DNA from: a virus
DNA: 64,000 nucleotides
Reading direction: 5' to 3' (one strand)
IMG/VR virus record: IMGVR_UViG_3300047476_001831
Span: 1 to 64,000 of that record
Shown here in pieces: positions 23,379 to 38,048 of this stretch. The notes under the pieces are model-generated. The model was not told the origin of the DNA and searched no databases. It saw only the letters and a program-made list of their open reading frames with translations. The number at the start of each line of letters is the position of its first letter. Within the stretch, counting starts at the first letter, position 1. Both the position numbers and the translations under genes were made by a program.

Positions 23379-23453
23379 AGGGGTGTAGCTCAGTTGGTTA
23401 AGAGTACTAGTTTTGGGAACTAGTGGTCGCAGGTTCGAGCCCTGTCACCCCTA
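23379..23453 (+). tRNA. tRNA-Pro(TGG)
   Basis: CTAGT-ttTGGga-ACTAG. Confidence 0.92.
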
Positions 23454-23463
23454 CAATACATTT

Positions 23464-23538
23464 TGTCCTGTAACTCAGTTGGTTTAGAGTACTACGCTGA
23501 TACCGTAGGTGCCGTGGGTTCAAGTCCCACCAGGACAA
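23464..23538 (+). tRNA. tRNA-Ile(GAT)
   Basis: CTACG-ctGATac-CGTAG. Confidence 0.9.
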
Positions 23539-23562
23539 CTATTTTTTTAATACTTAAAAATT

Positions 23563-23967
23563 ATGAATCAAGAATTTGTACCCTTTGAAGAATCCTTGGA
23601 ATTAAAAGAAATGGGATTTGATGAATTATGTTTTGGATATTACTCGAATGGTCAAATAACGAATGTTGACTTGAATTGGGTAAGTACTTCAATCAATCCC
23701 CCCACTTTAATTGATGGTGGATTCTATAGTATGAAAAATAGTGACACCACTAATGAACTTAATTGCACTGCACCAATCTATTCACAAGTATTCCATTGGT
23801 TTATGGAAACCCATAAAATAGATTCCAGTGTGATGGAAATGAAGTTTGTGATTGAGTCTGATGAAGATTTACCGAAATGGTTTTATGGGTTCAATAATTA
23901 TGACGAAACAAAATTAGGATGTTTAAGACAATTAATTAGAAAGGTTAAAAAAAATGGAAAGGGTTAA
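23563..23967 (+). CDS. Phage hypothetical protein
   Basis: EFVPFE.SLELKE.GFDE.C..APIYSQVF.WF. Confidence 0.7.
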   Translation: MNQEFVPFEESLELKEMGFDELCFGYYSNGQITNVDLNWVSTSINPPTLIDGGFYSMKNSDTTNELNCTAPIYSQVFHWFMETHKIDSSVMEMKFVIESDEDLPKWFYGFNNYDETKLGCLRQLIRKVKKNGKG

Positions 23968-24211
23968 AATTGGTGAATACAAAATTGGGGATAATTTGAT
24001 TATCGAATTTGGTGAAAACAATCCCAACAATAAGGAAGTTCAGGTTAGAGCGATAGTTGATATGGAGGTTGTAATTTTATTGGATAAGAATCAAAATTAT
24101 TTAATGGAAACAGTAAAATATATGAATCTTTTATGTAGATTTGGGAACGTTATTCGTGAAAAGAATGATGTGAGATTTCAAACCGAATTAATTCACGACC
24201 CAAGAATCTAA
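23954..24211 (+). CDS. Hypothetical protein
   Basis: ORF track. Confidence 0.55.
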   Translation: MERVKIGEYKIGDNLIIEFGENNPNNKEVQVRAIVDMEVVILLDKNQNYLMETVKYMNLLCRFGNVIREKNDVRFQTELIHDPRI

Positions 24212-24214
24212 ATT

Positions 24215-24511
24215 ATGCTAAAAAGAATTATCAAAAGGAGTACTTGTAAGTTTTACGAATCAATTAGAAACCGATTTAATATGGAGTGTGTGTTGAGAGA
24301 AGGTGATTATGTTTATGATATTGAGGATGGGAGTGAATGGTTGTTATTGGAAAATCCCAATAAAGGTGGTTCGGCAAAAAGTATTTGTACATTTGCGCCT
24401 GAAGGTTGTGTGTATAAAATAGGAACACCATTCAAAAGATGTTATTTTGATGAGTTTGGTAAATTGAGAAAATACCTCAAAAGAGGTATGAACCCAGAAA
24501 GAAATTTTTAA
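24215..24511 (+). CDS. Hypothetical protein
   Basis: ORF track. Confidence 0.55.
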   Translation: MLKRIIKRSTCKFYESIRNRFNMECVLREGDYVYDIEDGSEWLLLENPNKGGSAKSICTFAPEGCVYKIGTPFKRCYFDEFGKLRKYLKRGMNPERNF

Positions 24512-24516
24512 TTAAT

Positions 24517-24591
24517 GACCCTGTGGCTTAGCTGGTTTAAAGCACAATACTTTTAATATTGGGATCGGGAGTTCGAATCTCCCCAGGGTCA
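24517..24591 (+). tRNA. tRNA-Lys(TTT)
   Basis: CAATA-ctTTTaa-TATTG. Confidence 0.92.
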
Positions 24592-24816
24592 CTTAGGTAT
24601 AGTTTGGATTATTAATCCCATTGAACTTGCGGTTACTTTATATGTGAATAATGAAGGGGTAAAATTAATACCCATTTGTTTGAAATCGAAAACTTCGAAT
24701 TCTTGTTCCTCATAAACTCCAACAATCGAACTTGTTTCGTTATTGATGTATAAGGAATCAAAGGTTTTTAAGTTTATTACTAAACCTATTTCAACTGGGG
24801 GGATAAGTATTGTCAT
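24589..24816 (-). CDS. Hypothetical protein, antisense to the tRNA cluster
   Basis: 75 aa ORF preceded by TATTTAT on the minus strand. Confidence 0.5.
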   Translation of the reverse strand: MTILIPPVEIGLVINLKTFDSLYINNETSSIVGVYEEQEFEVFDFKQMGINFTPSLFTYKVTASSMGLIIQTIPK

Positions 24817-24860
24817 TTAATGGTTTTGTTAAATAAATATTGAATTTAAATTAAATTTTT

Positions 24861-25544
24861 ATGTCAACAACTTGGAATGAAATTTGGAAAAATAGGAAGG
24901 TAGAATTTGATTCGTTGGATTATTCTAATTTATTGAAACTGAATGGTTATGATGGTCCTCAAAGTAATCTAACTCCACAAAATTTAAATCTAGCTCATAA
25001 GATTTATGCGGAAAAAATGAATTTAAAACCTAATCAGAGTATTTTTGAGGTTGGTTGTGGGGCAGGTTCTTTCCTGTACAATTGGTATAATAGTGGACAT
25101 AAAGTTGGTGGATGTGACATATCTAAAAACTTATTGGAATGTACAAAAAAAATCTTACCAAGAGGTGAATGGTATTTAGCTTCAGATAGTGAATTTGAAA
25201 AAGAGCCTAAATGGGATCACTTGGTATCTTTTGGTGTGTGTATGTATTTAACACCAAGAGAGGTTTTGAATTTAATCGATAGAATGATAAATAAAGCGAA
25301 TTTTAGTGTATCATTATTCGAAATCTCTGATTTAGACAAGATGATAGATTGTGAAAAAGAAAGAAGAAGAATGATTCCTAATTATGAGGTTAAATACAAA
25401 GACTTAAACCATTTTTATCATAGTAAAAATGATATTTCTGAACATTTAAATAAGTTAGGTTTAAATTATACCATTTATGATCAATACATACCTGGTTATG
25501 AAAATTCTAAATGGAGATTTAATGTAACTATTAATTTGGTTTGA
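24861..25544 (+). CDS. Class I SAM-dependent methyltransferase
   Basis: IFEVGCGAG motif I, GCDIS motif II. Confidence 0.85.
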   Translation: MSTTWNEIWKNRKVEFDSLDYSNLLKLNGYDGPQSNLTPQNLNLAHKIYAEKMNLKPNQSIFEVGCGAGSFLYNWYNSGHKVGGCDISKNLLECTKKILPRGEWYLASDSEFEKEPKWDHLVSFGVCMYLTPREVLNLIDRMINKANFSVSLFEISDLDKMIDCEKERRRMIPNYEVKYKDLNHFYHSKNDISEHLNKLGLNYTIYDQYIPGYENSKWRFNVTINLV

Positions 25545-25558
25545 TTAATATAAATTCT

Positions 25559-25633
25559 ACTTCCTTAGCTCAGTTGGTTTAGAGTAACATCCTTACAAGG
25601 TGAAGGTCATTGGTTCGAATCCAATAGGAAGTA
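25559..25633 (+). tRNA. tRNA-Val(TAC)
   Basis: ctTACaa loop, cloverleaf. Confidence 0.88.
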
Positions 25634-25694
25634 CAAAAAAACTTTACAAAGTGTTTGGAAATATGAAAAACAAGTTGTAAGTTTGTAAGACACT

Positions 25695-25770
25695 AGTTTT
25701 GTAGCTTAATGTGTGAAAGCGTTCAATGGGTAACTGTTGAAAGATTTAGGTTAGAATCCTGTCAGGACTA
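25695..25770 (+). tRNA. Degenerate tRNA-like element with non-canonical anticodon arm
   Basis: Acceptor AGTTTTG/CAGGACT, D and T arms present, 8-nt loop GGGTAACT. Confidence 0.45.
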
Positions 25771-25972
25771 CAAAAAAAATGTACCTCGATGCCTCTCATA
25801 AGAACGGCACACTAGCAGAGGTCTTGTTGCTTGTAAACGAATAGCCCAAGGTATAAGTTAGGAAGCTTAACTCAACCTATCCCCCACTGACGAGTGGGGT
25901 GAAGTTGGGGGATTAAAAAGAAATATTATATATCTGCAATATATAAAATTCATTAACTTAAAAACAATCAAT

Positions 25973-26938
25973 ATGAAAAAATTAACTTTATTTATTTTAA
26001 TCAATTTTTTTTTAAACAATTTTAATTGTTACTCTCAAATAAAAACTTTAGAAGTCAGTAAACAAAAAGAAATTTTAGATACAATAACATATGACAGCTC
26101 AAAAAATTTTTTAGGCGAGAATGTTTATATGTATAAAAATCAAGAATTATATGTAATGCCACAACACCCTAGTTTAAGGAAATATGGGTATAGTTATTTT
26201 TACACTGACTATAAAAAGGAGGTAAAATACAAGTGTTGTGATGGTATTGGTTCAAAATATAGTGATTTAGTTGGTCAATATTTTCTTGTCGTAGATATAA
26301 TAAAAATAGAAAAATCTGTTGATGATATTGTAGATACCGATAAGTTTTACCTCAAATTAAGGAATAAAAAAACATCTGAAATACTATACTTCAAATATAA
26401 CACCAAATATGAATCTGATTTTCCTTTTTTAGTTGTTGGATATTATGAAAAACAAAATGAAATTAATGTTGGTAAAGAAATTATTCTAAAAAATGGAAAA
26501 TGGTTAGAAATATGGTATGGTAAAGGAGAACCAATAATAGATTTAAAGACCGGTAGTATTTTGAATATTCAACAAGGTAGTAAATGGAAATGTGTAAATG
26601 TTATGGTTGAGGAGAAATGTTTTACTTTTGCTATGATTTTAGAAAATAATTTAGGACACACAATATTTTTACCATTATCATCATATAATAAACCAAGTTT
26701 CAAGATACAATGGGGAATATATAATCCGATAGAGGTAAAAAATTATATTGAAAGATTTGGTGTTGAGAATTGGGAAATAATTTTGAATAGTGAAATAAAA
26801 ATTGGATTTACTGAAGAAATGGTTAAACTTGCTTGGGGGTTACCTAAAAAAATAAACAGAACGTCTGGTTTGGATCAATGGGTTTATGAAAATCAATATC
26901 TTTACTTTAACAATGGTAAATTAGAAGCGTATAATTAA
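25973..26938 (+). CDS. Secreted/periplasmic hypothetical protein (host-like)
   Basis: Signal peptide; C-terminal IGFTEEMV..AWG.P..IN..QWVY..YLYF.NGKL domain. Confidence 0.7.
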   Translation: MKKLTLFILINFFLNNFNCYSQIKTLEVSKQKEILDTITYDSSKNFLGENVYMYKNQELYVMPQHPSLRKYGYSYFYTDYKKEVKYKCCDGIGSKYSDLVGQYFLVVDIIKIEKSVDDIVDTDKFYLKLRNKKTSEILYFKYNTKYESDFPFLVVGYYEKQNEINVGKEIILKNGKWLEIWYGKGEPIIDLKTGSILNIQQGSKWKCVNVMVEEKCFTFAMILENNLGHTIFLPLSSYNKPSFKIQWGIYNPIEVKNYIERFGVENWEIILNSEIKIGFTEEMVKLAWGLPKKINRTSGLDQWVYENQYLYFNNGKLEAYN

Positions 26939-26948
26939 TTATAAAATT

Positions 26949-27033
26949 GGTCGGGTGGCCGAGTTGGTTAAGGCAATAGTCTGCAAAACTATCGAAAAAC
27001 ATTTCATCGTGGGTTCAAGTCCCACCCCGACCT
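26949..27033 (+). tRNA. tRNA-Cys(GCA) with extended variable region
   Basis: ATAGT-ctGCAaa-ACTAT, U73, 16-nt variable region. Confidence 0.85.
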
Positions 27034-27085
27034 CAAAAAATAGTTCAGTTAGTTATTTTTACTCATTTTGTTGATATTTATATAT

Positions 27086-27817
27086 ATGAAATGGAATGAT
27101 AACGATATTGAAAAATTGATTGATTTAGTTAATCAAGGATTAAAACCGAATAGGATTGCTGAGATTTTTGGGGTTTCGTATAAAACGATAACTAACAAAA
27201 TGTTTAGGATGGGTTTACAAGTAATTTATACGACAAATAAAACTTGTAAAAATTGTGGTAATAGTTTTGAATCTTATTTGAGTAAAAACAAATTGTTTTG
27301 TAATTCATCTTGTTCAACGACATTCAATAATAAAAATCGTAAACATACTGAAGAAACTAAAAATAAAATTGCAAAAACCCTAAAGAATAAGCCAACTAAA
27401 CCTAAAGTTAAAAAAATCAAAACTTGTAGGATTTGTAATAACGAGGTTGTTGAAAAATATAAGATTGTTTGTGAAGATTGTAGATTGGAGTATTATCAAT
27501 ATTATAGACCTTCTTGTACTTTTCAGTTTGATGTAAAAGATTATCCACAAGAATTTGATTTGAGTTTAATTGAACAACATGGATGGTATTCTCCAACAAA
27601 TAAAAAAAATAATTTAGGGGGTGTCACAAAAGACCATAAATATTCAGTGATGGAGGGTTTTAGAAATAAGATAGACCCAAGTATTTTATCACATCCTGTA
27701 AATTGTAAATTACTTTTATTTTCAGAGAATTCATCCAAAAATGATAAATCATCATTAACCTTAAATGAACTACTTGAAAATATTGAAATTTGGAATAAAA
27801 AATACGGAAATAGTTAA
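27086..27817 (+). CDS. Putative free-standing homing endonuclease (HTH, Zn fingers, NUMOD3-like, HNH-like C-terminus)
   Basis: CKNC..FCNSSC, HTEETKNKI, DHKYS..HPVNC..N..KN; inserted between tRNAs. Confidence 0.6.
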   Translation: MKWNDNDIEKLIDLVNQGLKPNRIAEIFGVSYKTITNKMFRMGLQVIYTTNKTCKNCGNSFESYLSKNKLFCNSSCSTTFNNKNRKHTEETKNKIAKTLKNKPTKPKVKKIKTCRICNNEVVEKYKIVCEDCRLEYYQYYRPSCTFQFDVKDYPQEFDLSLIEQHGWYSPTNKKNNLGGVTKDHKYSVMEGFRNKIDPSILSHPVNCKLLLFSENSSKNDKSSLTLNELLENIEIWNKKYGNS

Positions 27818-27845
27818 AAGTTATTATTATCTTTACATAACATAT

Positions 27846-27920
27846 GGGGATGTAGCTCAATTGGTTTAGAGTGGTGGTCTCCAAAACCACAGGTTATAGG
27901 TTCGAGTCCTATCGTCCTCG
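27846..27920 (+). tRNA. tRNA-Trp(CCA)
   Basis: GTGGT-ctCCAaa-ACCAC. Confidence 0.92.
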
Positions 27921-27934
27921 CAAAACTTAAAAAA

Positions 27935-28135
27935 ATGAAAGAAATTAAATACAGATTTTTGTTAACTTTTTATTCGGCTTTTATTTTTTTTCTAATTATG
28001 ATTCCACAGATTCTAATTAGTAAACACATTTTTAATTTGAAATTTAATGAATATCTAATGTGGGGTGTTTTATATATCTCATATGATTTCACAACAAAAT
28101 TTATTTTACCCAAGAAAAAGAAAAAAGATATTTAA
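27935..28135 (+). CDS. Small membrane protein
   Basis: Hydrophobic ORF. Confidence 0.5.
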   Translation: MKEIKYRFLLTFYSAFIFFLIMIPQILISKHIFNLKFNEYLMWGVLYISYDFTTKFILPKKKKKDI

Positions 28136-28136
28136 T

Positions 28137-28457
28137 ATGGTAAGGGATTACATAATCGAGACATTATTGAAAATAAAAGAACACGATGAAAAGGTACATA
28201 AACTCTATACTCTCGGAGTTGATATTATTGACTTTGACAACTCCTTTTCGCAACTTGAAAAAAGTATTCCGACCTTACTCCGAAAAGAAAAAGACAAACA
28301 ATTCGGATACATTCAGGACTTAGTTGGTTGGTGGTTATACGAAGATGTTGATAAAATAATTTATGTTGATGATATAGAGATTAATGTTGACAAAGTCGTG
28401 GAATTTGTTGACTATTTATTAAGAGAGTATGGAACAAATGACATACCCACAAATTAG
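28137..28457 (+). CDS. Hypothetical protein
   Basis: Probable start MVRDYII; WWLYE motif. Confidence 0.6.
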   Translation: MVRDYIIETLLKIKEHDEKVHKLYTLGVDIIDFDNSFSQLEKSIPTLLRKEKDKQFGYIQDLVGWWLYEDVDKIIYVDDIEINVDKVVEFVDYLLREYGTNDIPTN

Positions 28458-28459
28458 AT

Positions 28460-29101
28460 ATGGCTTATATTGAAAGTAATTTTTTCCCACTTAAAGTTTA
28501 TGTTCGTAATGAATATATGTATCAGAACCAAAAAGGTTTTGGGGAGTTTACTGAGGCTGTAATCACATCAATTAGATGTTTACCTGGACAAGCAACATTA
28601 TTTCAAGTATTGTTAAATAATGGTGTTATGAGAGATAAATTACCCTCTCATGCCTTGTTAACAAAACCTGAATTACCAAATCCTGATTTTCCATTTCATT
28701 ACCTACAAATATGGAACTCTTTTTCTTACAATTTCTCACTTATACAATTGAATTATTTACCTAATGCACCAGTCAGTGTTTTTATGAAAAACAAAAAATG
28801 GATGGATGGTAATTATTTTGCAACAATAAATTGGGGATCAAGTGATATGAACACCAATCTAAGTTTAGCTGAGGATGGTATGGAACACAAGTGTCACCAT
28901 ATTATATTACTAAAAAATGGACAAATTGCATTACAACCGAATAATAGAATTAAATGGTTTGAAGCAAGTTTTGTAACCAAAGATTTTCCTAAAAAACCTG
29001 ATTATTTGGTTAATGACCAAATATGGAATTGTGAAACAACAGAAAAGTGGGCAACTGAAGATTCGGATTATATGTTCTACGATAACGATTTAAAAAATTA
29101 A
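28460..29101 (+). CDS. Conserved phage hypothetical protein
   Basis: VRNEY, LQIWNSFS, EHKCHH..GQIALQPNNRI.W. Confidence 0.75.
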   Translation: MAYIESNFFPLKVYVRNEYMYQNQKGFGEFTEAVITSIRCLPGQATLFQVLLNNGVMRDKLPSHALLTKPELPNPDFPFHYLQIWNSFSYNFSLIQLNYLPNAPVSVFMKNKKWMDGNYFATINWGSSDMNTNLSLAEDGMEHKCHHIILLKNGQIALQPNNRIKWFEASFVTKDFPKKPDYLVNDQIWNCETTEKWATEDSDYMFYDNDLKN

Positions 29102-29103
29102 TT

Positions 29104-29487
29104 ATGTTCAAATATAAAGTAGAAGTAAAAAATTCAAAGAATCCTAAAATGGGATTAGGTTTGTTTGCAAATGAAATTATAAAAAGTGACACAATTGTTT
29201 GGGAGTTTATTGAGGGTTTGGATATAAGAATAGACCAAGATACCTTAAACAAATTAAATGATACTCAAAGGGAGTTTTTCAAGAAATATGGGTGGAAGGA
29301 AGATGATGGAAATTATTATTCCTCTTGTGATTTAACGAATTTTATAAATCATAGTTTTACCCCCAATCTGATTTGTGTTGGAGAGATAATAAAAACAAAT
29401 AAAGATATTGAAATTGGTGAAGAATTATTTATCAATTATGAAGAATTCGATGTTGAGTTCGACACTTACAAAAATGAACTTATTTAA
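29104..29487 (+). CDS. SET-domain protein (lysine methyltransferase-like)
   Basis: GLGLFA, FINHSF.PN, DIEIGEELFINY. Confidence 0.85.
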   Translation: MFKYKVEVKNSKNPKMGLGLFANEIIKSDTIVWEFIEGLDIRIDQDTLNKLNDTQREFFKKYGWKEDDGNYYSSCDLTNFINHSFTPNLICVGEIIKTNKDIEIGEELFINYEEFDVEFDTYKNELI

Positions 29488-29496
29488 TTTTTAAAG

Positions 29497-29997
29497 ATGA
29501 AAGAAATGGTAATTGTAAACTTCTACAAAAAATATGAAGCAAATTGGGATGAACTCCAAATGATAGCCTTGGACACAATTGCCAAAATGGAAGAAAGTTT
29601 GGAAGATGTTGAAATTGGTGAACTTTCAGTTTATCAACAATATGAAGATTATAGGACAGCTTGTATGCAAGGATTAAAAACATTTATCCTTCAAGTATTA
29701 AATGATTGGGAGAATATGAACATTTTAGTGTTGAATGGGGAGTTTTATAAGAAATTCGAGTTCTTAGAAATGGAAGGGATTCTAAACGATTGGGAATACT
29801 CAAGTTTATATAGAAATTCAAAAGAACTATTCACCTTCTTTAATAAAGAAAAGTTTCAACTAACACCAGAACAATTTGATTTTATTCATGCTCTTTATTC
29901 AAAAAATGATGATGTAATTTGTAACTTATTGTCATTTGAATATGAGGTAAGGGAAATAAGTGAAGAAGATGACAATACTGACGATTTAATTGATTAA
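29497..29997 (+). CDS. Hypothetical protein
   Basis: ORF track. Confidence 0.6.
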   Translation: MKEMVIVNFYKKYEANWDELQMIALDTIAKMEESLEDVEIGELSVYQQYEDYRTACMQGLKTFILQVLNDWENMNILVLNGEFYKKFEFLEMEGILNDWEYSSLYRNSKELFTFFNKEKFQLTPEQFDFIHALYSKNDDVICNLLSFEYEVREISEEDDNTDDLID

Positions 29998-29999
29998 TT

Positions 30000-30311
30000 A
30001 TGAAAAACAATATTTTTACAAAAGAAATAAAAGTCGCTGATGCTAATACATCAGTTAGTGAATTACTAAGAGAAACACTAATTAATTTCAGTTGGGGTTT
30101 CTTTGGTAACTCAATTGTTGTGTTTATGGCCAAAGAAATTGATATCGCAGTATTGGTTAATTTCTTCTTATATTATATCCTAATTTCAATGATTGTTAAT
30201 CGTGCTAAATATGAAACTAACTTGGGGAAATTCTTTGTTTTACCCGGTTCAGCAGCTCTTGGAGCATTCACAGGATATAAAGTAGCACAAATTATTTCAA
30301 CTTTTTTGTAA
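30000..30311 (+). CDS. Membrane protein
   Basis: Three hydrophobic segments. Confidence 0.6.
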   Translation: MKNNIFTKEIKVADANTSVSELLRETLINFSWGFFGNSIVVFMAKEIDIAVLVNFFLYYILISMIVNRAKYETNLGKFFVLPGSAALGAFTGYKVAQIISTFL

Positions 30312-30373
30312 CATACTTGACACTTTTTCGTTTTATCATTATATTTAATAAAAAAATAGTAAAAACTTCACAA

Positions 30374-30445
30374 ATGAAATACAATCTCTATATGGACTTA
30401 ACGATAGCAACTGAGGGTAGAAACCCTCGGATGGAGATGATATGA
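30374..30445 (+). CDS. Leader peptide 2 MKYNLYMDLTIATEGRNPRMEMI (tRNA cluster 2 attenuator)
   Basis: 23-codon ORF; internal hairpin GAGGGT/ACCCTC; GATGGA (30430-30435) is complementary to the terminator 5' arm TCCATC. Confidence 0.75.
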   Translation: MKYNLYMDLTIATEGRNPRMEMI

Positions 30446-30472
30446 TAATAGGTTTTAATTGTTAATAATGTC

Positions 30473-30508
30473 AATCCATCTTCCTAAAAAAAAGATGGAT
30501 TTTTTTTT
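30473..30508 (+). terminator. Attenuator terminator before tRNA cluster 2
   Basis: AATCCATCTT-loop-AAGATGGATT followed by a U tract. Confidence 0.8.
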
Positions 30509-30552
30509 GTCACAAAGTTTGGAAATTAGAAATGGTTTTGTAACTTTGTAGT

Positions 30553-31032
30553 ATGAGAAAACAAACACCATACATATCATCTTCAGTCGCCATAAAAGGG
30601 ATTAATGATTCAGTACTTGCGAAGTCAGAGAACAACGATTGTGTAGTAAGAGCTTTTGCTTCAGCATACAATGTATCTTATGATTTTGCACACAAAAAAG
30701 TCGCTGAATTATTTGGAAGAAAAAATAGACAAGGGACATTTTGTTTCAGTATTGTAATGAGACAAATGGAACTTCAAGATGTAAGGATAAATAAGAAAAA
30801 AGTTCAAACAATAAGAAAAGATGTGAATCTATCTTATTGGGTAAAAGTAAAAGGTGTGAACAAATTAAGAAATATGACAACTGCAAAGTTTTTAGAGGAT
30901 TTTCCCACTGGAACTTACATTGTCACAGTCAAAGGACATGCTTTTACAATAAAGGATGGAGTGGTAATTGGAAATCCAGAAGATGCAACTCAAAGAAAAA
31001 AAAATATCTTTGGTGCTTGGAAAATAGGATAA
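30553..31032 (+). CDS. Conserved phage protein (NDCVVRA family)
   Basis: ENNDCVVRAFA..GTYIV.V.GHA..IKDG. Confidence 0.75.
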   Translation: MRKQTPYISSSVAIKGINDSVLAKSENNDCVVRAFASAYNVSYDFAHKKVAELFGRKNRQGTFCFSIVMRQMELQDVRINKKKVQTIRKDVNLSYWVKVKGVNKLRNMTTAKFLEDFPTGTYIVTVKGHAFTIKDGVVIGNPEDATQRKKNIFGAWKIG

Positions 31033-31074
31033 GATTACTTAACTTTGTAAAGTTAATTGAAATTGAGGAATAAA

Positions 31075-31148
31075 GGGCTATTGGTGTAGAGGTCGAACAT
31101 GCCACCCTGTCACGGTGGAGATCAGGGGTTCAAATCCCCTATAGCTCG
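31075..31148 (+). tRNA. tRNA-Asp(GTC)
   Basis: CCACC-ctGTCac-GGTGG. Confidence 0.92.
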
Positions 31149-31307
31149 CAAAAAAAATTAATATTATGACAAAGTTTATTATTGCTTGTATTGGTATAAT
31201 TATTTTGGGTTTTATTGGGAACTACATCATTAAAAAATATCCAAATTCTTGGGTTGCAAAATGGTGGGATGATATGACTGATAATGCCCATTGGTGGTAA
31301 AATATAT

Positions 31308-31380
31308 GTTCCATTCGACAAGGGGTCTAAGTCACCTCCCTTTCACGGAGGAGTCATGGGTTCGAATCCCATATGGAATA
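31308..31380 (+). tRNA. tRNA-Glu(TTC)
   Basis: CCTCC-ctTTCac-GGAGG. Confidence 0.92.
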
Positions 31381-31430
31381 CAAATCTCAGAAGTAATTAA
31401 TCTGGGGCTGAGAGGTTCGAAACTCTCGAA

Positions 31431-31559
31431 TGGCTATGGTGTAAGGGCACACGGTCCCCCTGGGCGACAATATTGCGAAAGGGTATCCTTAATAGGAGAG
31501 AGTATTGTGAAACGATAGAAGTAAGGGACTGGGGAAGGGTTCGAATCCTTTTTAGTCAA
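31431..31559 (+). ncRNA. tRNA-like element with a large structured insert replacing the anticodon loop
   Basis: TGGCTA/TAGTCA acceptor, D arm, CGGTCCC/GGGACTG stem enclosing about 66 nt, GGTTCGAATCC T arm. Confidence 0.5.
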
Positions 31560-31568
31560 CAAACATAA

Positions 31569-31640
31569 TGCAAGGAAGTGTAGAGGTTGCACATTGGGCT
31601 CATAACCCAAAGGTAGTGGGTTCGATTCCCACCCTTGCGT
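31569..31640 (+). tRNA. tRNA-Met(CAT), initiator-like
   Basis: TTGGG-ctCATaa-CCCAA (three G-C pairs), weak U1-G72 pair. Confidence 0.85.
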
Positions 31641-31649
31641 CAAACACAA

Positions 31650-31724
31650 TGCAAGATGGACTGGAAGTGGTTCCAGCTCGGTCTCATAAGCCGTACCATG
31701 TGGGTTCGACTCCCACTCTTGCAT
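31650..31724 (+). tRNA. tRNA-Met(CAT)
   Basis: ctCATaa loop, cloverleaf. Confidence 0.8.
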
Positions 31725-31737
31725 CTAAATTATTAAT

Positions 31738-31822
31738 GGGAAAGCGCCGAAGTAGGAGAGTCGGGGATGACTGTAAATCATTTGCTTTAGCTGAGGGGGT
31801 TCGAATCCCTCTTTTCCCACCA
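31738..31822 (+). tRNA. tRNA-Tyr(GTA)
   Basis: ctGTAaa loop, long variable arm, encoded CCA. Confidence 0.88.
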
Positions 31823-31868
31823 CAATGCAGTAACAGCTCAATGAAGTTTGAAACATAAACAATAAAAA

Positions 31869-31941
31869 GCATCAATAGCTCAATTGGTAGAGTCCTTGTC
31901 TTCCAAACAAGATGTTACGAGTTCGAATCTCGTTTGATGCT
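31869..31941 (+). tRNA. tRNA-Gly(TCC)
   Basis: CTTGT-ctTCCaa-ACAAG, U73. Confidence 0.92.
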
Positions 31942-31961
31942 CAAAATATAAATAAACCGCT

Positions 31962-32171
31962 ATGAATCAGTTACAATTTAATAATCTTAAAGTGGGTGAT
32001 AAAATACATATAAAATCTCGTGATGGTTTATACACCTTCTTGAAAAAAGATTTTAGATATGGAGAAATACACATTACTTGTAACAGATGGCAATATGAAG
32101 AAAATCCAATAAGGATAACAACTTTTGATGACTTCAAATGTTTAGCTGGTGGTTTATGGAGGATAAGATAA
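31962..32171 (+). CDS. Hypothetical protein
   Basis: ORF between tRNAs. Confidence 0.55.
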   Translation: MNQLQFNNLKVGDKIHIKSRDGLYTFLKKDFRYGEIHITCNRWQYEENPIRITTFDDFKCLAGGLWRIR

Positions 32172-32178
32172 ATTAAAT

Positions 32179-32256
32179 GGGGACGCATGTACCAAGGCAG
32201 GGCGACAGACATTTGCAATGTCCGTGAGGTGAGTTCGATTCTCACCGTTTCCACCA
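32179..32256 (+). tRNA. tRNA-Ala(TGC)
   Basis: ttTGCaa loop, G3:U70, encoded CCA. Confidence 0.85.
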
Positions 32257-32268
32257 AAAAAAAGTTAT

Positions 32269-32871
32269 ATGAAAAAAGTATTTTTATTTTTGATGTGTTT
32301 TGTATTACTCACATCGTTTTCAACCCCACCTTTGAGGGTTTTATTCATTGGAGATAGTTTAACTTGTTATACTGGTGGTTGGCAAGACCAAGTGTGTAGA
32401 TATTTTGGATATCAAAGTGTCAATAGGTCAGTTGGTGGTAAAAGAACTGAATGGATGAGGTTGACATTAAATGAACATTTGAAGAGGGATTCATCTTTCA
32501 CTTATTGTTTTATCTATGGGGGTTGTAATGATGCTTATTCTTATGTGAATCTTCAAGGCGCTGTAAACAATATACAGATGATGGTGGATAGTTGTAATAG
32601 GAGGGGAATTAAGCCTATTGTAATCGTTGGTTATGACCCAGCTAAAGTATCAATCAAAACTGTTTATGATGCTGCAACCACAAAGAGATGTAGAGAAAGA
32701 TATGTGGAGTTTCAAAAGTTAATGGTTCATCCTGAAACTGGACTTAAAAATTGTAAAATCATTCCAAAGGATACAACAGTAACATTTCAGGATGCCGGTG
32801 ATGGAATCCATCTTGGTGGAAATGGACAAAGGAAATTTGCTAATTGGGTAATAAATCACTTAAATCAATAA
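32269..32871 (+). CDS. Secreted SGNH/GDSL hydrolase
   Basis: Signal peptide, FIGDSLT, GGCND, DGIH. Confidence 0.88.
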   Translation: MKKVFLFLMCFVLLTSFSTPPLRVLFIGDSLTCYTGGWQDQVCRYFGYQSVNRSVGGKRTEWMRLTLNEHLKRDSSFTYCFIYGGCNDAYSYVNLQGAVNNIQMMVDSCNRRGIKPIVIVGYDPAKVSIKTVYDAATTKRCRERYVEFQKLMVHPETGLKNCKIIPKDTTVTFQDAGDGIHLGGNGQRKFANWVINHLNQ

Positions 32872-32873
32872 TA

Positions 32874-33146
32874 ATGAAATATATAATTCCAACAGTTTTT
32901 ATTACAATTATGTGGATTTTTTTAATTACTGGAATCCTTAATACTATCCCAACACCTAAAATAGAAAATGGGGATATTCTTAAAAATTGTGTAATTGATA
33001 CGATGTATGTTACAGAATCCCCATCTACAATTGAATATGGAAAACGATATAATTACAAGACAAGTTGTGATGAAGTTATTTTAACCAAGAGAAAGGATGT
33101 ATATTCAATTGGTGATACAATAACTTATGTATATAAAAAAAGATAA
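32874..33146 (+). CDS. Membrane-anchored hypothetical protein
   Basis: N-terminal TM; start taken at MKYII. Confidence 0.5.
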   Translation: MKYIIPTVFITIMWIFLITGILNTIPTPKIENGDILKNCVIDTMYVTESPSTIEYGKRYNYKTSCDEVILTKRKDVYSIGDTITYVYKKR

Positions 33147-33154
33147 TACACTTT

Positions 33155-33228
33155 GCCGACATAGCTCAGCTGGCCAGAGCACGTGATTTGTAATCTCGGG
33201 GTCGTGGGTTCAAATCCCTCTGTCGGCT
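33155..33228 (+). tRNA. tRNA-Thr(TGT)
   Basis: ttTGTaa loop, GCCGACA/TGTCGGC acceptor. Confidence 0.88.
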
Positions 33229-33311
33229 CAAATATTTTTCAAAATTATTCCACTATTGTTGTGTGAATTAAAAACTCTTCTTATATTTGTGAACACTAAA
33301 ACGGAAACACA

Positions 33312-33542
33312 ATGGCAAAAGAGAAAAAAACAATTCAAGTTGAGTTTATTAAAAACTTTGCAAATCTACAATTAGCAAATCCAAATAACTCAATTCAAGC
33401 GAAACTTGGAGTAATTGCGATGTTAGAAAAGGTTTTAAGTGAAGCAAATGCTTACAAAGGTTATATGTATTTGTCTTTAGGTCCTAACAATACACCACCT
33501 GAATTTGGTAGTGAGGGATGGGCATCAAGAAAGTATTTCTAA
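33312..33542 (+). CDS. Hypothetical protein
   Basis: ORF after a TATATTTG promoter-like site. Confidence 0.6.
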   Translation: MAKEKKTIQVEFIKNFANLQLANPNNSIQAKLGVIAMLEKVLSEANAYKGYMYLSLGPNNTPPEFGSEGWASRKYF

Positions 33543-33660
33543 TGGTTGTGACACCTAGTAATTCACAAGTAGTGGTTGACACTTTGAATGTTACCTGACT
33601 TTAAGGTTTTGAAGAGTAAAACCAGAAATCTTCTAAAAAACTTCTAAAAAATTTACAACT

Positions 33661-33921
33661 ATGGCACTGATTTATTTAGTTATTGATAGACTTGATAAGA
33701 TTCCAATTTTAACAGCATCCACGCGTGAAAAGGCGAAAGAACTCTTGGATGAGTTTATGGGATTACCTCCATACTTTGAAGATAAGGATGTGGAATATTT
33801 GGGTTATTTTCCTTACAATTGTAAATGGCCTGACATATATGAGGGTGACTTTAAGTATAGAGATGGGGAAGATATACAAGTGTTCAGTTTGTATTGTATG
33901 ACATTAGATGAATTGAATTGA
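33661..33921 (+). CDS. Hypothetical protein
   Basis: ORF track. Confidence 0.55.
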   Translation: MALIYLVIDRLDKIPILTASTREKAKELLDEFMGLPPYFEDKDVEYLGYFPYNCKWPDIYEGDFKYRDGEDIQVFSLYCMTLDELN

Positions 33922-33927
33922 TAATAT

Positions 33928-34042
33928 AGTCCTGTGGCGGAATTGGTAGACGCTAAGTAAGATGGTGTACATTTGTCCCATAAGAAAGACCGATGCAACA
34001 GAAATGTGAAGGGTCGTATAGGTTCAAATCCTATCTTGACTA
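33928..34042 (+). ncRNA. Degenerate tRNA-like element with expanded centre
   Basis: Leu-type D arm GGCGGAATTGGTAGACGC and T arm ATAGGTTCAAATCCTAT; no canonical anticodon arm. Confidence 0.45.
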
Positions 34043-34045
34043 CAA

Positions 34046-34255
34046 TGAGTAAGAGATACTCAGTGGTCTTTTATCCAAGACCCATTTAACAATGGATAGG
34101 TTCAATTTGGACAACCTCAATGCCAAATCGTGGGAATAAAGGCAGGTAGCAGAGCCTCCCAGTAGCTTGACTAATTTTAAGAGGGATGACCCACAGGTTT
34201 ATTGAAAGCAAGAAAACCGATATATCTACTCACTTGGAATCTCAGAGTGGGGAAA
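34046..34255 (+). ncRNA. Unidentified structured RNA (about 200 nt)
   Basis: ORF-free, GC-richer than flanks; TGAGTA..GATA pairs with TATC-TACTCA. Confidence 0.4.
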
Positions 34256-34258
34256 TTT

Positions 34259-34330
34259 GCACCCATAGTTAAAAGGATATAACCTATCTCTTCTAAAGAT
34301 ATATTCCTAGTTCGAGTCTAGGTGGGTGTA
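34259..34330 (+). tRNA. tRNA-Arg(TCT)
   Basis: TATCT-ctTCTaa-AGATA. Confidence 0.9.
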
Positions 34331-34354
34331 CTAACTATAAAAAAAACATAAACA

Positions 34355-34774
34355 ATGAAAAACTTTTTATTTTCTATACTCTTTATTTTACCATTAGTTT
34401 CATTTGGTCAATTAGGAAAAACACAAAAAGAAATCAAAGAAACTTTAGGTAATGAATATGCAGTAGATTTTGTGGATAGATTTACAAACTACATTTATGA
34501 TTTCAATTTCCTATATGAAGACAAATGGATGACTGAAAGATATATTTTCACATTTGAAAGGGTAAATGGTGATATGTATTGCACAAATTGGCAAATAGTT
34601 CGTCCAATTGAAACATACAATCAAACATATTGGGAGTTAGAAGATTATTTCAAACTAAACGATACCATTTATATTGGTGAAATTGATAAAACCAAAATGA
34701 ATATAAACTTGTTTAGAGGAGAGGGTTATTATTGTATAAATGTCACATATAAACCAGAATATAAATTAAATTAA
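34355..34774 (+). CDS. Secreted hypothetical protein
   Basis: Signal peptide MKNFLFSILFILPLVSFGQ. Confidence 0.65.
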   Translation: MKNFLFSILFILPLVSFGQLGKTQKEIKETLGNEYAVDFVDRFTNYIYDFNFLYEDKWMTERYIFTFERVNGDMYCTNWQIVRPIETYNQTYWELEDYFKLNDTIYIGEIDKTKMNINLFRGEGYYCINVTYKPEYKLN

Positions 34775-34783
34775 ATTAAAATT

Positions 34784-34957
34784 ATGAAGTTCAAAGTAGG
34801 AGACAAAGTTTTCAAACCAAAAGGTTACAAATTCCCAGGTATTGTTGTTGCGGTATTCCAAACCACATCAGGTGACACGAGAGTTGTTGCAGAGTTAATT
34901 GATAACGGAATGTTACACATTTTTAGTGAGAGTCAATTGGAACTTGATAATAACTAA
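34784..34957 (+). CDS. Small SH3-fold protein, DfrB/R67 DHFR-like
   Basis: MKFKVGDKVFKPKGYKFPGIVVAVFQT..RVVAE..GMLHIFSESQLE; below the ORF-track length cutoff. Confidence 0.55.
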   Translation: MKFKVGDKVFKPKGYKFPGIVVAVFQTTSGDTRVVAELIDNGMLHIFSESQLELDNN

Positions 34958-34976
34958 ATTAAAAACTAATATTGAG

Positions 34977-35216
34977 ATGAAAAAAACCCCAATTCAAAAT
35001 GTTATTGACAAAGTTGAGAAACTCGTAAGAGAAAGTGAAGTTGGTACAGAGGAAAGAAGAAAACTGAATCTTGTAGTTTCTTATCTGTGGGACGAACTTG
35101 ACAATGAGAGGAAAAATATGACTGAAGTGTTTGATTCTTGTAAAAAAGAACATAGGGAGGTAACAGGAAAAATGTGGGTTAATAAACATTTTATGGATTA
35201 CGAAAAATTTTTATGA
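34977..35216 (+). CDS. Hypothetical protein
   Basis: Probable start MKKTPIQ. Confidence 0.55.
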   Translation: MKKTPIQNVIDKVEKLVRESEVGTEERRKLNLVVSYLWDELDNERKNMTEVFDSCKKEHREVTGKMWVNKHFMDYEKFL

Positions 35217-35383
35217 TGGAAAACGAAAATCAGGGTAAAACACCAAAACAAATCAAATTATCCTACCAAATCTTTGCAGGTTCAATGTTGGGTTTAATTA
35301 TATTAGGTTTGGTTTATCTCATTAAGTTGGGATTTGGATTGTAAATGAAGGTTGGGTGGTGTAATGGTAGCCACGCAAGACTT

Positions 35384-36350
35384 AAAGAAAACTCGTAAAA
35401 TTCTAAAAAAAATGTGTTTGTTAGTTCGGTTTAGGTACATTTGTTGATATTTATATATAAAGAAGTTTATATGAAAACAAAATACAACAAAGAGGTATTA
35501 ACCGAGGCAATTAGAAAAAGTTTTTCGATTGCCGAAACTTGTAGAAATCTGTCAATTAGACCTAGTGGTGGTAATTACAAAACATTAAATTCTTTAATAA
35601 AAGAATACGATATTGACATTACTCACTTTACAGGACAAGGTTGGAATGTTGGATTGAAATTTAGACCAATGAAAACTTACTTATTAGAAGATATCTTGGT
35701 TGAAGATTCACAATATAGAAGTTCTTACAAACTAAAAAACAAATTGTTTGAAAATGGGATTAAACAAGAAAAATGTGAGGTTTGTTCAAATTCGGTATGG
35801 AACAATAAAAAAATTCCTCTTGAACTCCACCATATAAATGGAGTGAATACTGATAACAGAATAGAAAACTTACAGATTTTATGTTGTAATTGTCACGCAC
35901 AAACTGAAAATTTTAGAAAAGGGAAGAGTGCTCTCGCTGAAAAGAGGGAAGTAGAATACCGTAAATTCAAGGAAGCCTCAGCTAGTAATGTTGGTGGTAA
36001 TCTTGAGCCAAGTCTCAGGAATGAGAAAGGTGCAGAGACTAGACACGGTACATCTAAGTCTAAAAAACCAAAAAGACTTTGTAGTCTTTGTGATAAAGTT
36101 TTGAAGAATAATCAGACAACATATTGTTCAACAGAATGTTATTATCAAGGAACAAAAGGTAAAAGACCCCCAGTATTTGAACTTATTAAAAAATTTGAAG
36201 ACCTAAAAACATTTGTTAGTGTTGGAAAATTTTATAATGTTAGTGATAATGCAGTTAGGAAATGGTGTTCTTATTATGGTATTTTAGATATGGTGAAGGT
36301 ATAGTCCAGACTACAAACAAGAAATTGGTGGTGAAAACCATAGTAGTAAG
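35384..36350 (+). mobile_element. Group I intron (trnL-UAA type), 967 nt
   Basis: P AAATTCAAGGAAGCC, Q GGTAATCTTGAGCCAAG, R AGGTGCAGAGACTAGAC, S GAAGGTATAGTCC, P3 TACCGT/ACGGTA, terminal G at 36350. Confidence 0.9.
35471..36304 (+). CDS. Intron-encoded HNH homing endonuclease
   Basis: CEVC..LELHHINGVNTDNRIENLQILCCNCH; C-terminal Zn finger and HTH. Confidence 0.88.
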   Translation: MKTKYNKEVLTEAIRKSFSIAETCRNLSIRPSGGNYKTLNSLIKEYDIDITHFTGQGWNVGLKFRPMKTYLLEDILVEDSQYRSSYKLKNKLFENGIKQEKCEVCSNSVWNNKKIPLELHHINGVNTDNRIENLQILCCNCHAQTENFRKGKSALAEKREVEYRKFKEASASNVGGNLEPSLRNEKGAETRHGTSKSKKPKRLCSLCDKVLKNNQTTYCSTECYYQGTKGKRPPVFELIKKFEDLKTFVSVGKFYNVSDNAVRKWCSYYGILDMVKV

Positions 36351-36405
36351 AAAATCTTGTGGTCAGTAAGACCGTGCGGGTTCGAGTCCCGCCCCGACTA
36401 CTAAA

Positions 36406-36479
36406 GATTCTATAGCTCAATTGGTTAGAGCTTTCCGCTCATAACGGAGGGGTTCGAGGTTCAAGTCCTCGTGGAATCA
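36406..36479 (+). tRNA. tRNA-Ile2/Met(CAT), probably Ile2 (lysidine type)
   Basis: CCG-ctCATaa-CGG anticodon arm typical of Ile2; A73. Confidence 0.8.
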
Positions 36480-36484
36480 CAATT

Positions 36485-36570
36485 GCCTAAGTGGCGGAAT
36501 TGGTAAACGCAATTGTCTTAGAAACAATCGTCACATAAATGACTTGTGGGTTCGACTCCCACCTTGGGTA
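36485..36570 (+). tRNA. tRNA-Leu(TAG)
   Basis: ATTGT-ctTAGaa-ACAAT, long variable arm. Confidence 0.92.
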
Positions 36571-36603
36571 CAATATTTTTTCACGTCTAATTCAATTAAT
36601 TAA

Positions 36604-36882
36604 ATGAAAGACATTATAAAAACTTTTTTATTCCTCAATTTAATATTCTATACTTTGGGGATGTATCACTTCAATACAATAAACATCTTTAAGTTTGATG
36701 AAATTGATAGTATATTAAATCAACATACCGATTCTAACAATTCAATTAATTTTTTATTAGGTTGTGAATTGGTGTTATTTTTTATTTCATTTCTATTAAA
36801 AAAGATTACTACAATGTTATATATCTTATTAGGATTTTTGTTAGTAATGTATTTCTTGGGGTTTCTAAATCCTGAACAATAA
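36604..36882 (+). CDS. Membrane protein
   Basis: Three hydrophobic segments. Confidence 0.5.
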   Translation: MKDIIKTFLFLNLIFYTLGMYHFNTINIFKFDEIDSILNQHTDSNNSINFLLGCELVLFFISFLLKKITTMLYILLGFLLVMYFLGFLNPEQ

Positions 36883-37122
36883 GATATTTATTGTTATGAA
36901 AAGAATTTTTATTTTCATTTTAATCACATTTCTAATCTCTTCTTGTAATGTCTTTTACAGAGAGAATTGTGCGTCTTATTCCCAATCTAGTATTAGACAC
37001 AAAACCAAAAGTCCCAACTTAAAATATAAAGGAAAAGGAAACTCATTACCAAGATATATGAGAAATAGGGACTAATCTTATTTGATTTTTTCATCCTTTA
37101 TTTATATGTTTCTGTAAAAATT

Positions 37123-37431
37123 ATGGAACTGAAAATACTAAAAAAAGATACCAATGTTACTTACTATTTTCCCCACGGAAATAACGAACCATATTGTGTT
37201 ACCTTCTTAAAATCAGGATGGAAAGGACAATATCACGTAATATCTGAATGGGGTGATTCTGGTGACTTTACACACAGATTGATGAGTCCGATTCAAATAA
37301 TAGATTTGTATCATATTGATGCTAACGATTTACCTATAAATGACCAAGTATATTGTGTAACTAAACAAGAGATTTTGAATCATCCAAATGATTATGATTT
37401 AGGTGAATTTGTTAGGAGAAAAATTTCTTAA
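37123..37431 (+). CDS. Hypothetical protein
   Basis: C-terminal PNDYDLG..VR motif. Confidence 0.6.
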   Translation: MELKILKKDTNVTYYFPHGNNEPYCVTFLKSGWKGQYHVISEWGDSGDFTHRLMSPIQIIDLYHIDANDLPINDQVYCVTKQEILNHPNDYDLGEFVRRKIS

Positions 37432-37471
37432 TCCGAATAGTTTGTTTATCTTTGTATGAAACAAAATAGTT

Positions 37472-37645
37472 ATGAAAAAGGAGAACAAAATAAAAACAAC
37501 AATTGATGCCATAGGGAATGGTGCTCGTTTGGTTTATTTAGAGAAAAATCCACATGGATATTCTTCTGTAACAAAGATTCATAAAAGTAATAAACAATAT
37601 TCACGTAAAAACAAAAGATATGAAATACAAAATCTATTTGGATGA
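37472..37645 (+). CDS. Small basic protein (ArfA-like C-terminal motif)
   Basis: 57 aa ..KIHKSNKQYSRKNK.., after a TATCTTTG promoter. Confidence 0.45.
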   Translation: MKKENKIKTTIDAIGNGARLVYLEKNPHGYSSVTKIHKSNKQYSRKNKRYEIQNLFG

Positions 37646-38048
37646 TGAAAGAACTCCAAACGACAAAGATTGGGTAATCGTTAGAAACTATGGTCAATTT
37701 ATCAAAAAAATATCCGATATTGGATTGGAGAATATTGATATGATTTCATTTGATCACGATTTAGGTGACACTGCCGTTGAGGAATATTATAGAAATGTTA
37801 TTAAAAAAGGTATATTAGATTATGACAATATCGAAGAAAGAACTGGTTATGATGCGGCTAAATGGTTGGTCGGATATTACATGGACAATTACACCAACTC
37901 AACTCATTTTCCTCAAGTATTTGTCCACTCAGCCAATCCTGTGGGAGCTGCTAATATTGTTAATTATATTAATGGTTTCCTAAGACATATGGACAAAAAA
38001 GAAACCGCAAAATTGAAAGTTCACCCGTTCACCATTCAAGATAAATAA
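37620..38048 (+). CDS. Cyclic-phosphate-processing receiver-like domain protein
   Basis: YLDDER, ISFDHDLG, TGYD..KWL, VHSANPVG. Confidence 0.8.
   Translation: MKYKIYLDDERTPNDKDWVIVRNYGQFIKKISDIGLENIDMISFDHDLGDTAVEEYYRNVIKKGILDYDNIEERTGYDAAKWLVGYYMDNYTNSTHFPQVFVHSANPVGAANIVNYINGFLRHMDKKETAKLKVHPFTIQDK

Follow-up and report, generated by a model that had tools for sequence, protein, structure and literature searches.

What does a very short reading frame, closed by its own terminator, do at the head of a block of transfer RNA (tRNA) genes in a phage genome? The question is raised by the DNA analysed here (the window), which covers the initial 64 kb of a contig of 82 kb, IMG/VR record IMGVR_UViG_3300047476_001831, from a large, uncultured and AT-rich lake phage (G+C 30.7%). 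The window carries two tRNA blocks, identified with ARAGORN and Rfam, that are complementary in what they decode, and each is headed by a short open reading frame (ORF), leader 1 for cluster 1 and leader 2 for cluster 2. A preliminary description had taken leader 2 for an attenuator whose codons match the tRNAs downstream, and this interpretation is supported as far as sequence analysis reaches. We put at roughly 0.6 the probability that the segment 30317-30508 is an attenuator read by ribosomes, which would add read-through into cluster 2 when the codons of that cluster are read slowly. The output of cluster 2 tRNAs by the phage probably rises when ribosomes slow down on the matching codons.

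The upstream gene ends at 30311 and the next ORF begins at 30553. The gap between them (30312-30552) contains, in this order, a promoter, the leader ORF, a helix with a hairpin, a terminator and a promoter of the host type:

30317-30345, + strand: leader promoter, TTGACA-N17-TATATT, 11/12 consensus match
30374-30445, + strand: leader 2 ORF, 23 codons and TGA, peptide MKYNLYMDLTIATEGRNPRMEMI, the sole ATG-started ORF of the gap
30384-30391 with 30431-30438, + strand: helix 1:2, found both in the minimum-free-energy fold and in the centroid fold, z = -2.9
30411-30418 with 30423-30430, + strand: hairpin inside helix 1:2, predicted fold
30429-30435 with 30475-30481 and 30438-30443 with 30468-30473, + strand: candidate antiterminator, 13 bp in two parts, duplex -16.8 kcal/mol
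30473-30508, + strand: intrinsic terminator, stem of 10 bp (30473-30482 with 30492-30501), loop of 9 nt, seven more T, -10.2 kcal/mol
30518-30548, + strand: host-type promoter, TTTG-N19-TAACTTTG, ending 5 nt upstream of the next ATG

The sequence of the leader 2 ORF was exactly as first quoted, from ATG at 30374 to TGA at 30443-30445, and TAA and TAG follow in frame. The ORF begins about 21 nt past the predicted transcription start, and an A-run at -9 to -13 of its ATG matches the start context of the 74 long ORFs of the genome. Among the window genes, starts are preceded by A-runs and a Shine-Dalgarno-like site lies upstream of just one of these 74 ORFs. From such starts, and from the motif TTTG-N17-21-TAnnTTTG, which occurs 15 times in the genome compared to 4.7 +/- 1.8 in shuffles (a threefold enrichment), we infer a host of the Bacteroidota type. 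The leader promoter can also be read as a Bacteroidota-style TTG ... TATATTTA; TTGAC and TTATATTTAAT are conserved in all relatives, and the conserved block begins just upstream, even where the upstream gene is a different one. Both the hairpin at 30411-30430 and the terminator at 30473-30508, which the preliminary description had named, appeared in the folds, while a spacer hairpin (30439-30472) present in the first fold was dropped because it was not conserved in the relatives. The 5' strand of the candidate antiterminator spans codons 19-23 and the stop codon of leader 2. Rfam (cmscan of 20000-38000, E <= 1) gave no match within 30300-30550, leader families and T-box included, and no leader match was obtained at the gathering threshold in four relatives (L007, L008, L010 and L017). 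Two further observations concern the signals of this region. Good intrinsic terminators on the + strand number only two between 18 and 40 kb, one behind each leader ORF, and both stand at the start and not at the end of a tRNA block. Near-identical promoter-like copies, TTTGGAAAT...TTGTAnnTTTG, are located at 22367-22398, 25654-25685 and 30518-30548, all of them within or heading the tRNA blocks.

Cluster 1 decodes Gln, Phe, His, Ser, Asn, Arg(CGN), Pro, Ile(ATY), Lys, Val, Cys and Trp, and cluster 2 decodes Asp, Glu, Met, Ile(ATA), Tyr, Gly, Ala, Thr, Arg(AGR) and both Leu boxes. The codons read by the tRNAs of the two clusters are termed set 1 and set 2 (13 + 11 = 24 tRNA types), and the codons of the phage genes divide half and half between them. 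Among codons 2-23 of leader 2, 17 of 22 belong to set 2 (binomial p = 0.008), a level reached by 1.7% of 22-codon windows from real genes and by 0.7% of small ORFs in the same genome. Every cluster 2 tRNA type is represented in these 22 codons, as had been claimed (11/11, exact p = 8.7e-4), and this coverage is reached by 6e-4 of the real-gene windows; Met has four codons with the start codon excluded, Tyr, Thr, Glu and Ile(ATA) have two each and the other six have one each. The earlier count of 13 set-2 codons within codons 3-16 was correct. In codons 2-16, the positions where a stalled ribosome would free 30429 onward, 13 of 15 codons are in set 2 and all 11 types are present (p = 1e-5, for a window picked after the fact). 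Read in its two other frames, this DNA yields 8/11 and 8/13 (set 1/set 2), and base composition therefore explains little. Leader 1 mirrors leader 2, as the preliminary description had stated, with 24 of its 30 codons in set 1 and 12 of the 13 cluster 1 types present. When both leaders were kept fixed and the 24 types were randomly partitioned into 13 and 11, at least 41 of 52 codons fell in set with p = 8.5e-5, and 23 of 24 types were covered in 4e-4 of trials. The codon match is beyond chance and frame-specific. We had at first viewed the unit as a small RNA in its own right whose codon match was accidental, and abandoned this view after the tests of frame, coverage and partition.

The same tests bear on whether the locus is simple operon punctuation, in which the terminator would close the upstream unit (cluster 1 and the genes to 30311), the promoter behind it would open another, and both the ORF and its codon content would be accidental. 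A gene end, a terminator, a promoter and then the next genes is the commonest order in phage genomes, and the two terminators are the sole ones on the + strand in 22 kb. However, a strong conserved promoter separates the upstream gene from the terminator, the ~130 nt between promoter and terminator are the best-conserved DNA of the region, and chance was excluded at ~1e-4 by tests that fixed either the peptides or the tRNA sets. We find punctuation hardly credible as the whole explanation of this locus.

The leader 2 module was found in relatives represented by 15 IMG/VR contigs and 11 metagenome contigs. A degenerate pattern search of IMG/VR at the peptide level returned the same 15 contigs only, the metagenome scan gave seven further variants and two chance matches, and near and distant DNA searches of the phage database found tRNA-to-tRNA matches only. 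A 128-kb relative was scored as 43% complete by CheckV, and the complete genome is therefore probably near 300 kb. Over 15 sequences the module has a mean column identity of 91%, the highest of any DNA in the region, compared to 68-84% for the adjacent protein, and the terminator stem is identical in all of them. Where the upstream gene is a different one (L002-L004), conservation sets in at the promoter. In L017, L020 and L032, which lack the downstream gene, it runs out at the T-run, and a promoter with the same motif but another sequence and then tRNA-Asp come next. In every case, the module heads cluster 2 upstream of tRNA-Asp, whatever the neighbouring genes. Because its boundaries are the promoter and the terminator where the flanking genes differ, the module belongs to the head of cluster 2 and not to its neighbours.

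A comparison of the relatives had been proposed as a check, and its outcome was in favour of the preliminary description. All 12 distinct variants of leader 2, from about 27 related contigs, keep the ATG, the frame, the length and the position of the stop, which changed from TGA to TAA twice, and the same variation puts stops and mixed sets into frames +1 and +2. Codons 11-13 are hypervariable, with ATA/ACT/GCT at the first, GCA/GCT/ACA/GGA/GGG/GGT/AGA/TTA at the second and ACT/GCT at the third, all from set 2; codons 5, 8, 10 and 15 vary only synonymously. In codons 5-16 the amino acid changed at least seven times and never left set 2 (neutral expectation 0.41), compared to 3 in-set and 6 set-crossing changes outside these codons (Fisher p = 0.011). 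Therefore, at the variable codons the amino acid is free and the decoding tRNA set is not.

A rival reading is a cis-regulatory RNA that works without translation, either riboswitch-like or bound by a protein or a tRNA. Helix 1:2, its internal loop and the hairpin would be the sensor, the 3' strand would double as antiterminator, and the ORF would be incidental. A P1 helix that shares a strand with an antiterminator and is followed by a terminator is the typical layout of an OFF riboswitch, the conservation is at the nucleotide level, and the variation lies mostly in the internal loop and the spacer. However, the variation in this "loop" respects frame 0, where there are no stops and all variants are set-2 codons, while stops arise in +1 and +2. 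The stop codon survived two independent changes, the start context of the ORF resembles that of real genes, the codon statistics are frame-specific, and no Rfam family is matched at E <= 1. An RNA sensor of this kind seems quite improbable to us.

The isoleucine tRNA that reads ATA provides another comparison. The Ile2 tRNA at 36406-36480 has its orthologue in a CAT tRNA adjacent to Ile(GAT) in the cluster 1 of four relatives, with an identity of 87-90% in L007, L008 and L046 and of 83% in G004. In the window phage, where Ile2 is in cluster 2, there are two ATA codons in leader 2 and none in leader 1. The four relatives with Ile2 in cluster 1 have ATA once or twice in leader 1, and their leader 2 lacks it. 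Ile2 lies in cluster 2, and ATA is present in leader 2 but absent from leader 1, in the window phage alone; leader 2 of the L035 and L038 lineages also has ATA. The relocation of Ile2, mirrored by ATA codons switching leader, may be regarded as a natural experiment that agrees with codon matching. The L010 lineage is an exception, as its cluster 1 contains an unusual Ile(TAT)-like tRNA, yet ATA is absent from its leader 1.

Could the unit be a self-contained small gene, whose short mRNA, small RNA or peptide acts in trans? The tRNAs would then be transcribed solely from the promoter at 30518-30548, and the position of the unit would reflect conserved gene order. The unit does run in full from promoter to terminator, is conserved as one sharply bounded block and is directly followed by a conserved promoter. 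Its terminator is predicted to form in nearly all conditions, and its nucleotide conservation exceeds the needs of peptide selection alone. There is also a precedent for trans-acting attenuator products, since rnTrpL and peTrpL are an attenuator-derived RNA and peptide that act in trans (PMC6614838, PMC7968998). Such a gene leaves unexplained the codon match of leader 2 with cluster 2 and of leader 1 with cluster 1 (p = 8.5e-5), the confinement of the variable codons to set 2 while the amino acid varies freely, the movement of ATA codons with tRNA-Ile2 between clusters, and the complementarity of the end of the ORF to the 5' arm of the terminator. We consider it an unlikely account of the locus.

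The sequences show the parts of the module, their conservation and a frame-specific codon match that has been kept up in evolution. If leader 2 is an attenuator, as we prefer to believe, the steps that we infer are translation of the ORF, the stalling of ribosomes on it, the switch itself and read-through into the tRNA genes. An RNA of about 155 nt carrying the 23-codon ORF would be made from the leader promoter. With no ribosome on the ORF, or with a ribosome reaching the stop, 30429-30443 would be occupied by helix 1:2 or by the ribosome, the terminator at 30473-30508 would form and the transcript would end. When a cluster 2 tRNA is short, a ribosome would stall at about codons 2-15 and 30429-30443 would be free to pair with 30468-30481. 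The 5' arm of the terminator would be sequestered and the polymerase would continue into the tRNA genes, on top of the supply from the promoter at 30518-30548. Each cluster 2 tRNA type has a codon within codons 2-16, so that a shortage of any one of them could be sensed. More tRNA would restore termination, which would make the process a negative feedback.

The switch is the weak side of this proposal. Helix 1:2 is paired in 98-99% of the alignment cells, and its changes are one-sided only and mostly keep the pairing (for example, G-C to G-U). Both alternative folds fit 96-99% of the cells, with the antiterminator paired in 96.5%. With the RNA masked up to 30412, the antiterminator is the minimum-energy fold. 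When the ribosome was modelled as a 28-nt mask in equilibrium folding, an A-site at codon 10 lowered the terminator probability to 0.05 in the window phage and to 0.15 in L038, and the antiterminator wins in these alone. In the preliminary description, the antiterminator was the short motif GATGGA. Its pairing with the 5' arm of the terminator holds and is longer than claimed, in two parts; support from covariation was not obtained, and the pairing loses at equilibrium in most relatives.

Several points weigh against an attenuator. The equilibrium probability of the terminator is at least 0.7 at nearly all ribosome positions and at least 0.9 in most relatives. We therefore rejected an equilibrium model of the switch, in which switching is not supported in most relatives. 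In the trp operon of E. coli, the terminator is likewise more stable than the antiterminator and the choice is kinetic, and the equilibrium result thus neither refutes nor supports the switch. A two-sided compensatory change is found at no base pair of either fold, because the sequences are too alike, and the central G of the antiterminator is mutated without compensation in L015 (to T) and L035 (to A). The host-type promoter, about which the preliminary description had already cautioned, is present and conserved 10 nt past the terminator, and its motif is retained in L017, L020 and L032 despite different surrounding sequence; a near-copy lies directly after tRNA-Gln, the first tRNA of cluster 1. 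Transcription of either cluster can therefore proceed in the absence of read-through, the leader is not the sole gate, and the leaders can only add to a basal supply.

Other such points come from the codons. There are no tandem regulatory codons in leader 2, whereas classical attenuators have runs of the same codon. Five of the 22 codons come from the other set (Lys, Asn twice, Pro and Arg-CGG), with Asn4 invariant, and most relatives have a codon of set 1 (His or Arg) at position 3. The codons CTC, ACT and GGT require four-way wobble by U34 tRNAs, a caveat raised earlier that stands. Tracking of accessory tRNAs was tried and rejected, as Gln, Val, Ser(CGA) and Leu(CAA) in cluster 2 of the relatives have no matching leader codons, and the L010 lineage retains the Ala codon GCT, though no Ala tRNA is detectable there. 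All relatives belong to one close family, and the comparative tests therefore rest on few events. A search for RNA runs containing this stretch found none; one sequencing run that was compared consists of contigs, is probably DNA and covers the leader with the sequence of relatives only. Leader 2 resembles a multivalent leader-peptide attenuator that has neither of two classical features, codon runs and genes dependent on read-through, and that belongs to no Rfam family.

The counterpart in front of cluster 1 is built from similar parts:

22088-22183: leader 1 ORF, 31 codons, followed by a terminator, the element extending over 22088-22243

Its homologues (L047-L050, L044/L046, L022 and L016) have diverged far more than leader 2 has in its own relatives. 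In these homologues the ORF is 28-35 codons long and its core, HI..S-V/I-Q/L-PQ...CWS, is conserved; conservation is at the peptide level with synonymous changes. A conserved ATGGTT segment pairs with the 5' arm of the terminator, and this antiterminator is paired in 83% of the cells compared to 21-61% for slid controls. An ending common to leaders 1 and 2, TAATAGGT, was discarded because it is not retained in the relatives.

Immediately ahead of leader 1, at 20313-21710, is a DUF2828 (TROVE-like) gene. Its homologues in KVP40-type vibriophages (L069 and L070), with 48% identity, lie likewise within a few kb of the tRNA cluster, but on its other side. In Vibrio phage KVP40 (NC_005083.2; L076:355-521) and its relatives L077-L080, a conserved ORF of 37-38 codons (MTHSNTHS... 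in KVP40) is followed by a conserved strong terminator, which is 75-130 nt upstream of the first tRNA of a large cluster. This ORF uses 18-19 of the 20 amino acids and its conservation is visible in the peptide; in KVP40 it is unannotated, and the opposite strand has an annotated coding sequence. The likeness to leader 2 lies in a small conserved ORF and a terminator ahead of a tRNA cluster. However, the sequence is unrelated, and KVP40 belongs to the Straboviridae and has a host with Shine-Dalgarno sites. A partition test cannot be made there, since the single cluster serves nearly every amino acid. Four more distant DUF2828-linked loci (L066, L071, L072 and L074) gave no usable leader. The crAss-like phage cr126_1 was considered as an independent example and rejected as unconvincing, having merely an 8-codon ORF ahead of one terminator.

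All twelve cluster 2 tRNAs of the preliminary description are real, Leu(TAA) being split and the third CAT tRNA being Ile-like. The default scan overlooked three genuine tRNA genes in the two clusters, namely Ser(TGA), Ser(GCT) and the split Leu(TAA). The genes concerned, and those behind leader 2, are as follows:

22644-22725: tRNA-Ser(TGA), cluster 1, missed by the ARAGORN default scan
near 23132-23217: tRNA-Ser(GCT), cluster 1, missed by the ARAGORN default scan
30553-31032, + strand: 159-aa ORF, phrog_3754, function unknown, optional cargo that separates the leader module from the first tRNA
31075-31149, + strand: tRNA-Asp (ARAGORN, Rfam)
31308-31381, + strand: tRNA-Glu (ARAGORN, Rfam)
31569-31641, + strand: tRNA-Met (ARAGORN, Rfam)
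31650-31725, + strand: tRNA-Met, second copy (ARAGORN, Rfam)
31738-31822, + strand: tRNA-Tyr (ARAGORN, Rfam)
31869-31942, + strand: tRNA-Gly(TCC) (ARAGORN, Rfam)
32181-32256, + strand: tRNA-Ala(TGC) (ARAGORN, Rfam)
33155-33229, + strand: tRNA-Thr(TGT) (ARAGORN, Rfam)
34259-34331, + strand: tRNA-Arg(TCT) (ARAGORN, Rfam)
~35350-35386 (5' half) and ~36351-36401 (3' half), + strand: split tRNA-Leu(TAA), by BLAST to the uninterrupted genes of L001 and L008
35441-36304, + strand: HNH endonuclease ORF within the tRNA-Leu(TAA) insert, by HNH family matches
36406-36480, + strand: third CAT tRNA, Ile2 type, the ATA decoder, by orthology and its Ile-like D arm
36485-36571, + strand: tRNA-Leu(TAG), the final tRNA of cluster 2 (ARAGORN, Rfam)

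In the first part of cluster 2 (31075-34331, + strand), ORFs are interspersed among the tRNA genes. The 159-aa ORF is missing in L017, L020 and L032, in which tRNA-Asp is about 75 nt past the terminator. The gene of tRNA-Leu(TAA) is broken in the anticodon loop by an insert of about 960 nt, in which Rfam found no group I intron; because the gene is split, it was missed by both ARAGORN and Rfam. A group I intron match of 62 bits was given by Rfam between tRNA-Asp and tRNA-Glu in L017 (L017:6164-6355). In the window, a tRNA-like sequence at 25695-25770 (Rfam tRNA, 43.5 bits) has an anticodon that is not clear. The L010 lineage has a Gly(TCC)-like gene whose T arm is aberrant (L010:8251-8321), a 107-nt tRNA-like gene with an insert 3' of the anticodon (L010:9488-9594) and an 87-nt Ile(TAT)-like gene where the relatives carry Ile2(CAT) (L010:775-861).

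Among known systems, the multivalent leaders ilvL/ivbL (Ile, Leu, Val) and thrL (Thr, Ile) share with leader 2 a short leader ORF, a terminator and several kinds of codons. Their alternative pairing that overlaps the ORF has a candidate counterpart in leader 2, and the speed of the ribosome, which is their signal, would be that of leader 2 as well. However, these leaders regulate enzymes and contain runs of 4-8 same codons, whereas leader 2 stands before tRNA genes and has eleven codon types at low copy. It also differs from the enterobacterial attenuators in belonging to a phage with Bacteroidota-type signals and in having a separate promoter past the terminator. The logic of regions 1:2, 2:3 and 3:4 proposed for leader 2 is that of trpL, hisL, pheL, leuL and the Bacteroid-trp family of Rfam. 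The Bacteroidetes Trp leader motif indicates that such leaders function without Shine-Dalgarno sites. In trpL-type leaders, the stop codon is between regions 1 and 2, whereas that of leader 2 is inside region 2, and leader 2 has no tandem codons; in the Rfam search, neither these leaders nor Bacteroid-trp showed sequence or model similarity to it.

The nearest known precedent for a feedback on decoding capacity is pheM of the pheST operon, where a component of translation is tuned by the reading speed of matching codons. However, pheM senses one amino acid and controls a cellular gene for an aminoacyl-tRNA synthetase, whereas leader 2 fronts a viral tRNA set. T-box riboswitches also couple the status of tRNA to read-through of a terminator ahead of translation-related genes, but in them uncharged tRNA is bound directly, with no ribosome, by way of a specifier codon and the T-box sequence, in contrast to the ORF of leader 2. 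A literature search turned up no account of tRNA genes controlled by a leader peptide.

The purpose of phage tRNAs and the control of their expression are debated, and the proposals include compensation of codon usage and escape from host defences that target tRNAs (PMC10264068). More broadly, the two leaders may form a code-wide sensor of the decoding pool, each covering one half of the code with one codon per tRNA species. The loss of any tRNA, for example by host anticodon nucleases or by phage-induced decay of host tRNAs, would induce the block that holds its replacement, and the system would be both an inducible counter-defence and a tRNA homeostat. It would also be one case of a widespread and undescribed class of ribosome-read leaders ahead of phage tRNA clusters, reaching cultured phages such as KVP40. 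This broader view is speculative and we hold it only tentatively, considering it rather doubtful.

The narrower reading of leader 2 as an attenuator would, if true, be a new use of attenuation, as a feedback on decoding capacity instead of amino-acid supply. The ribosome would report which tRNAs are short and would be answered by transcription of exactly those tRNA genes, and one codon per tRNA species would suffice as a sensor. The rule that leader codons correspond to the tRNAs of their cluster would need only sequence to find such controls in metagenomes, and a similar-looking module is present in the cultured Vibrio phage KVP40. The hypothesis is directly testable, and the two leaders of one phage predict opposite responses.

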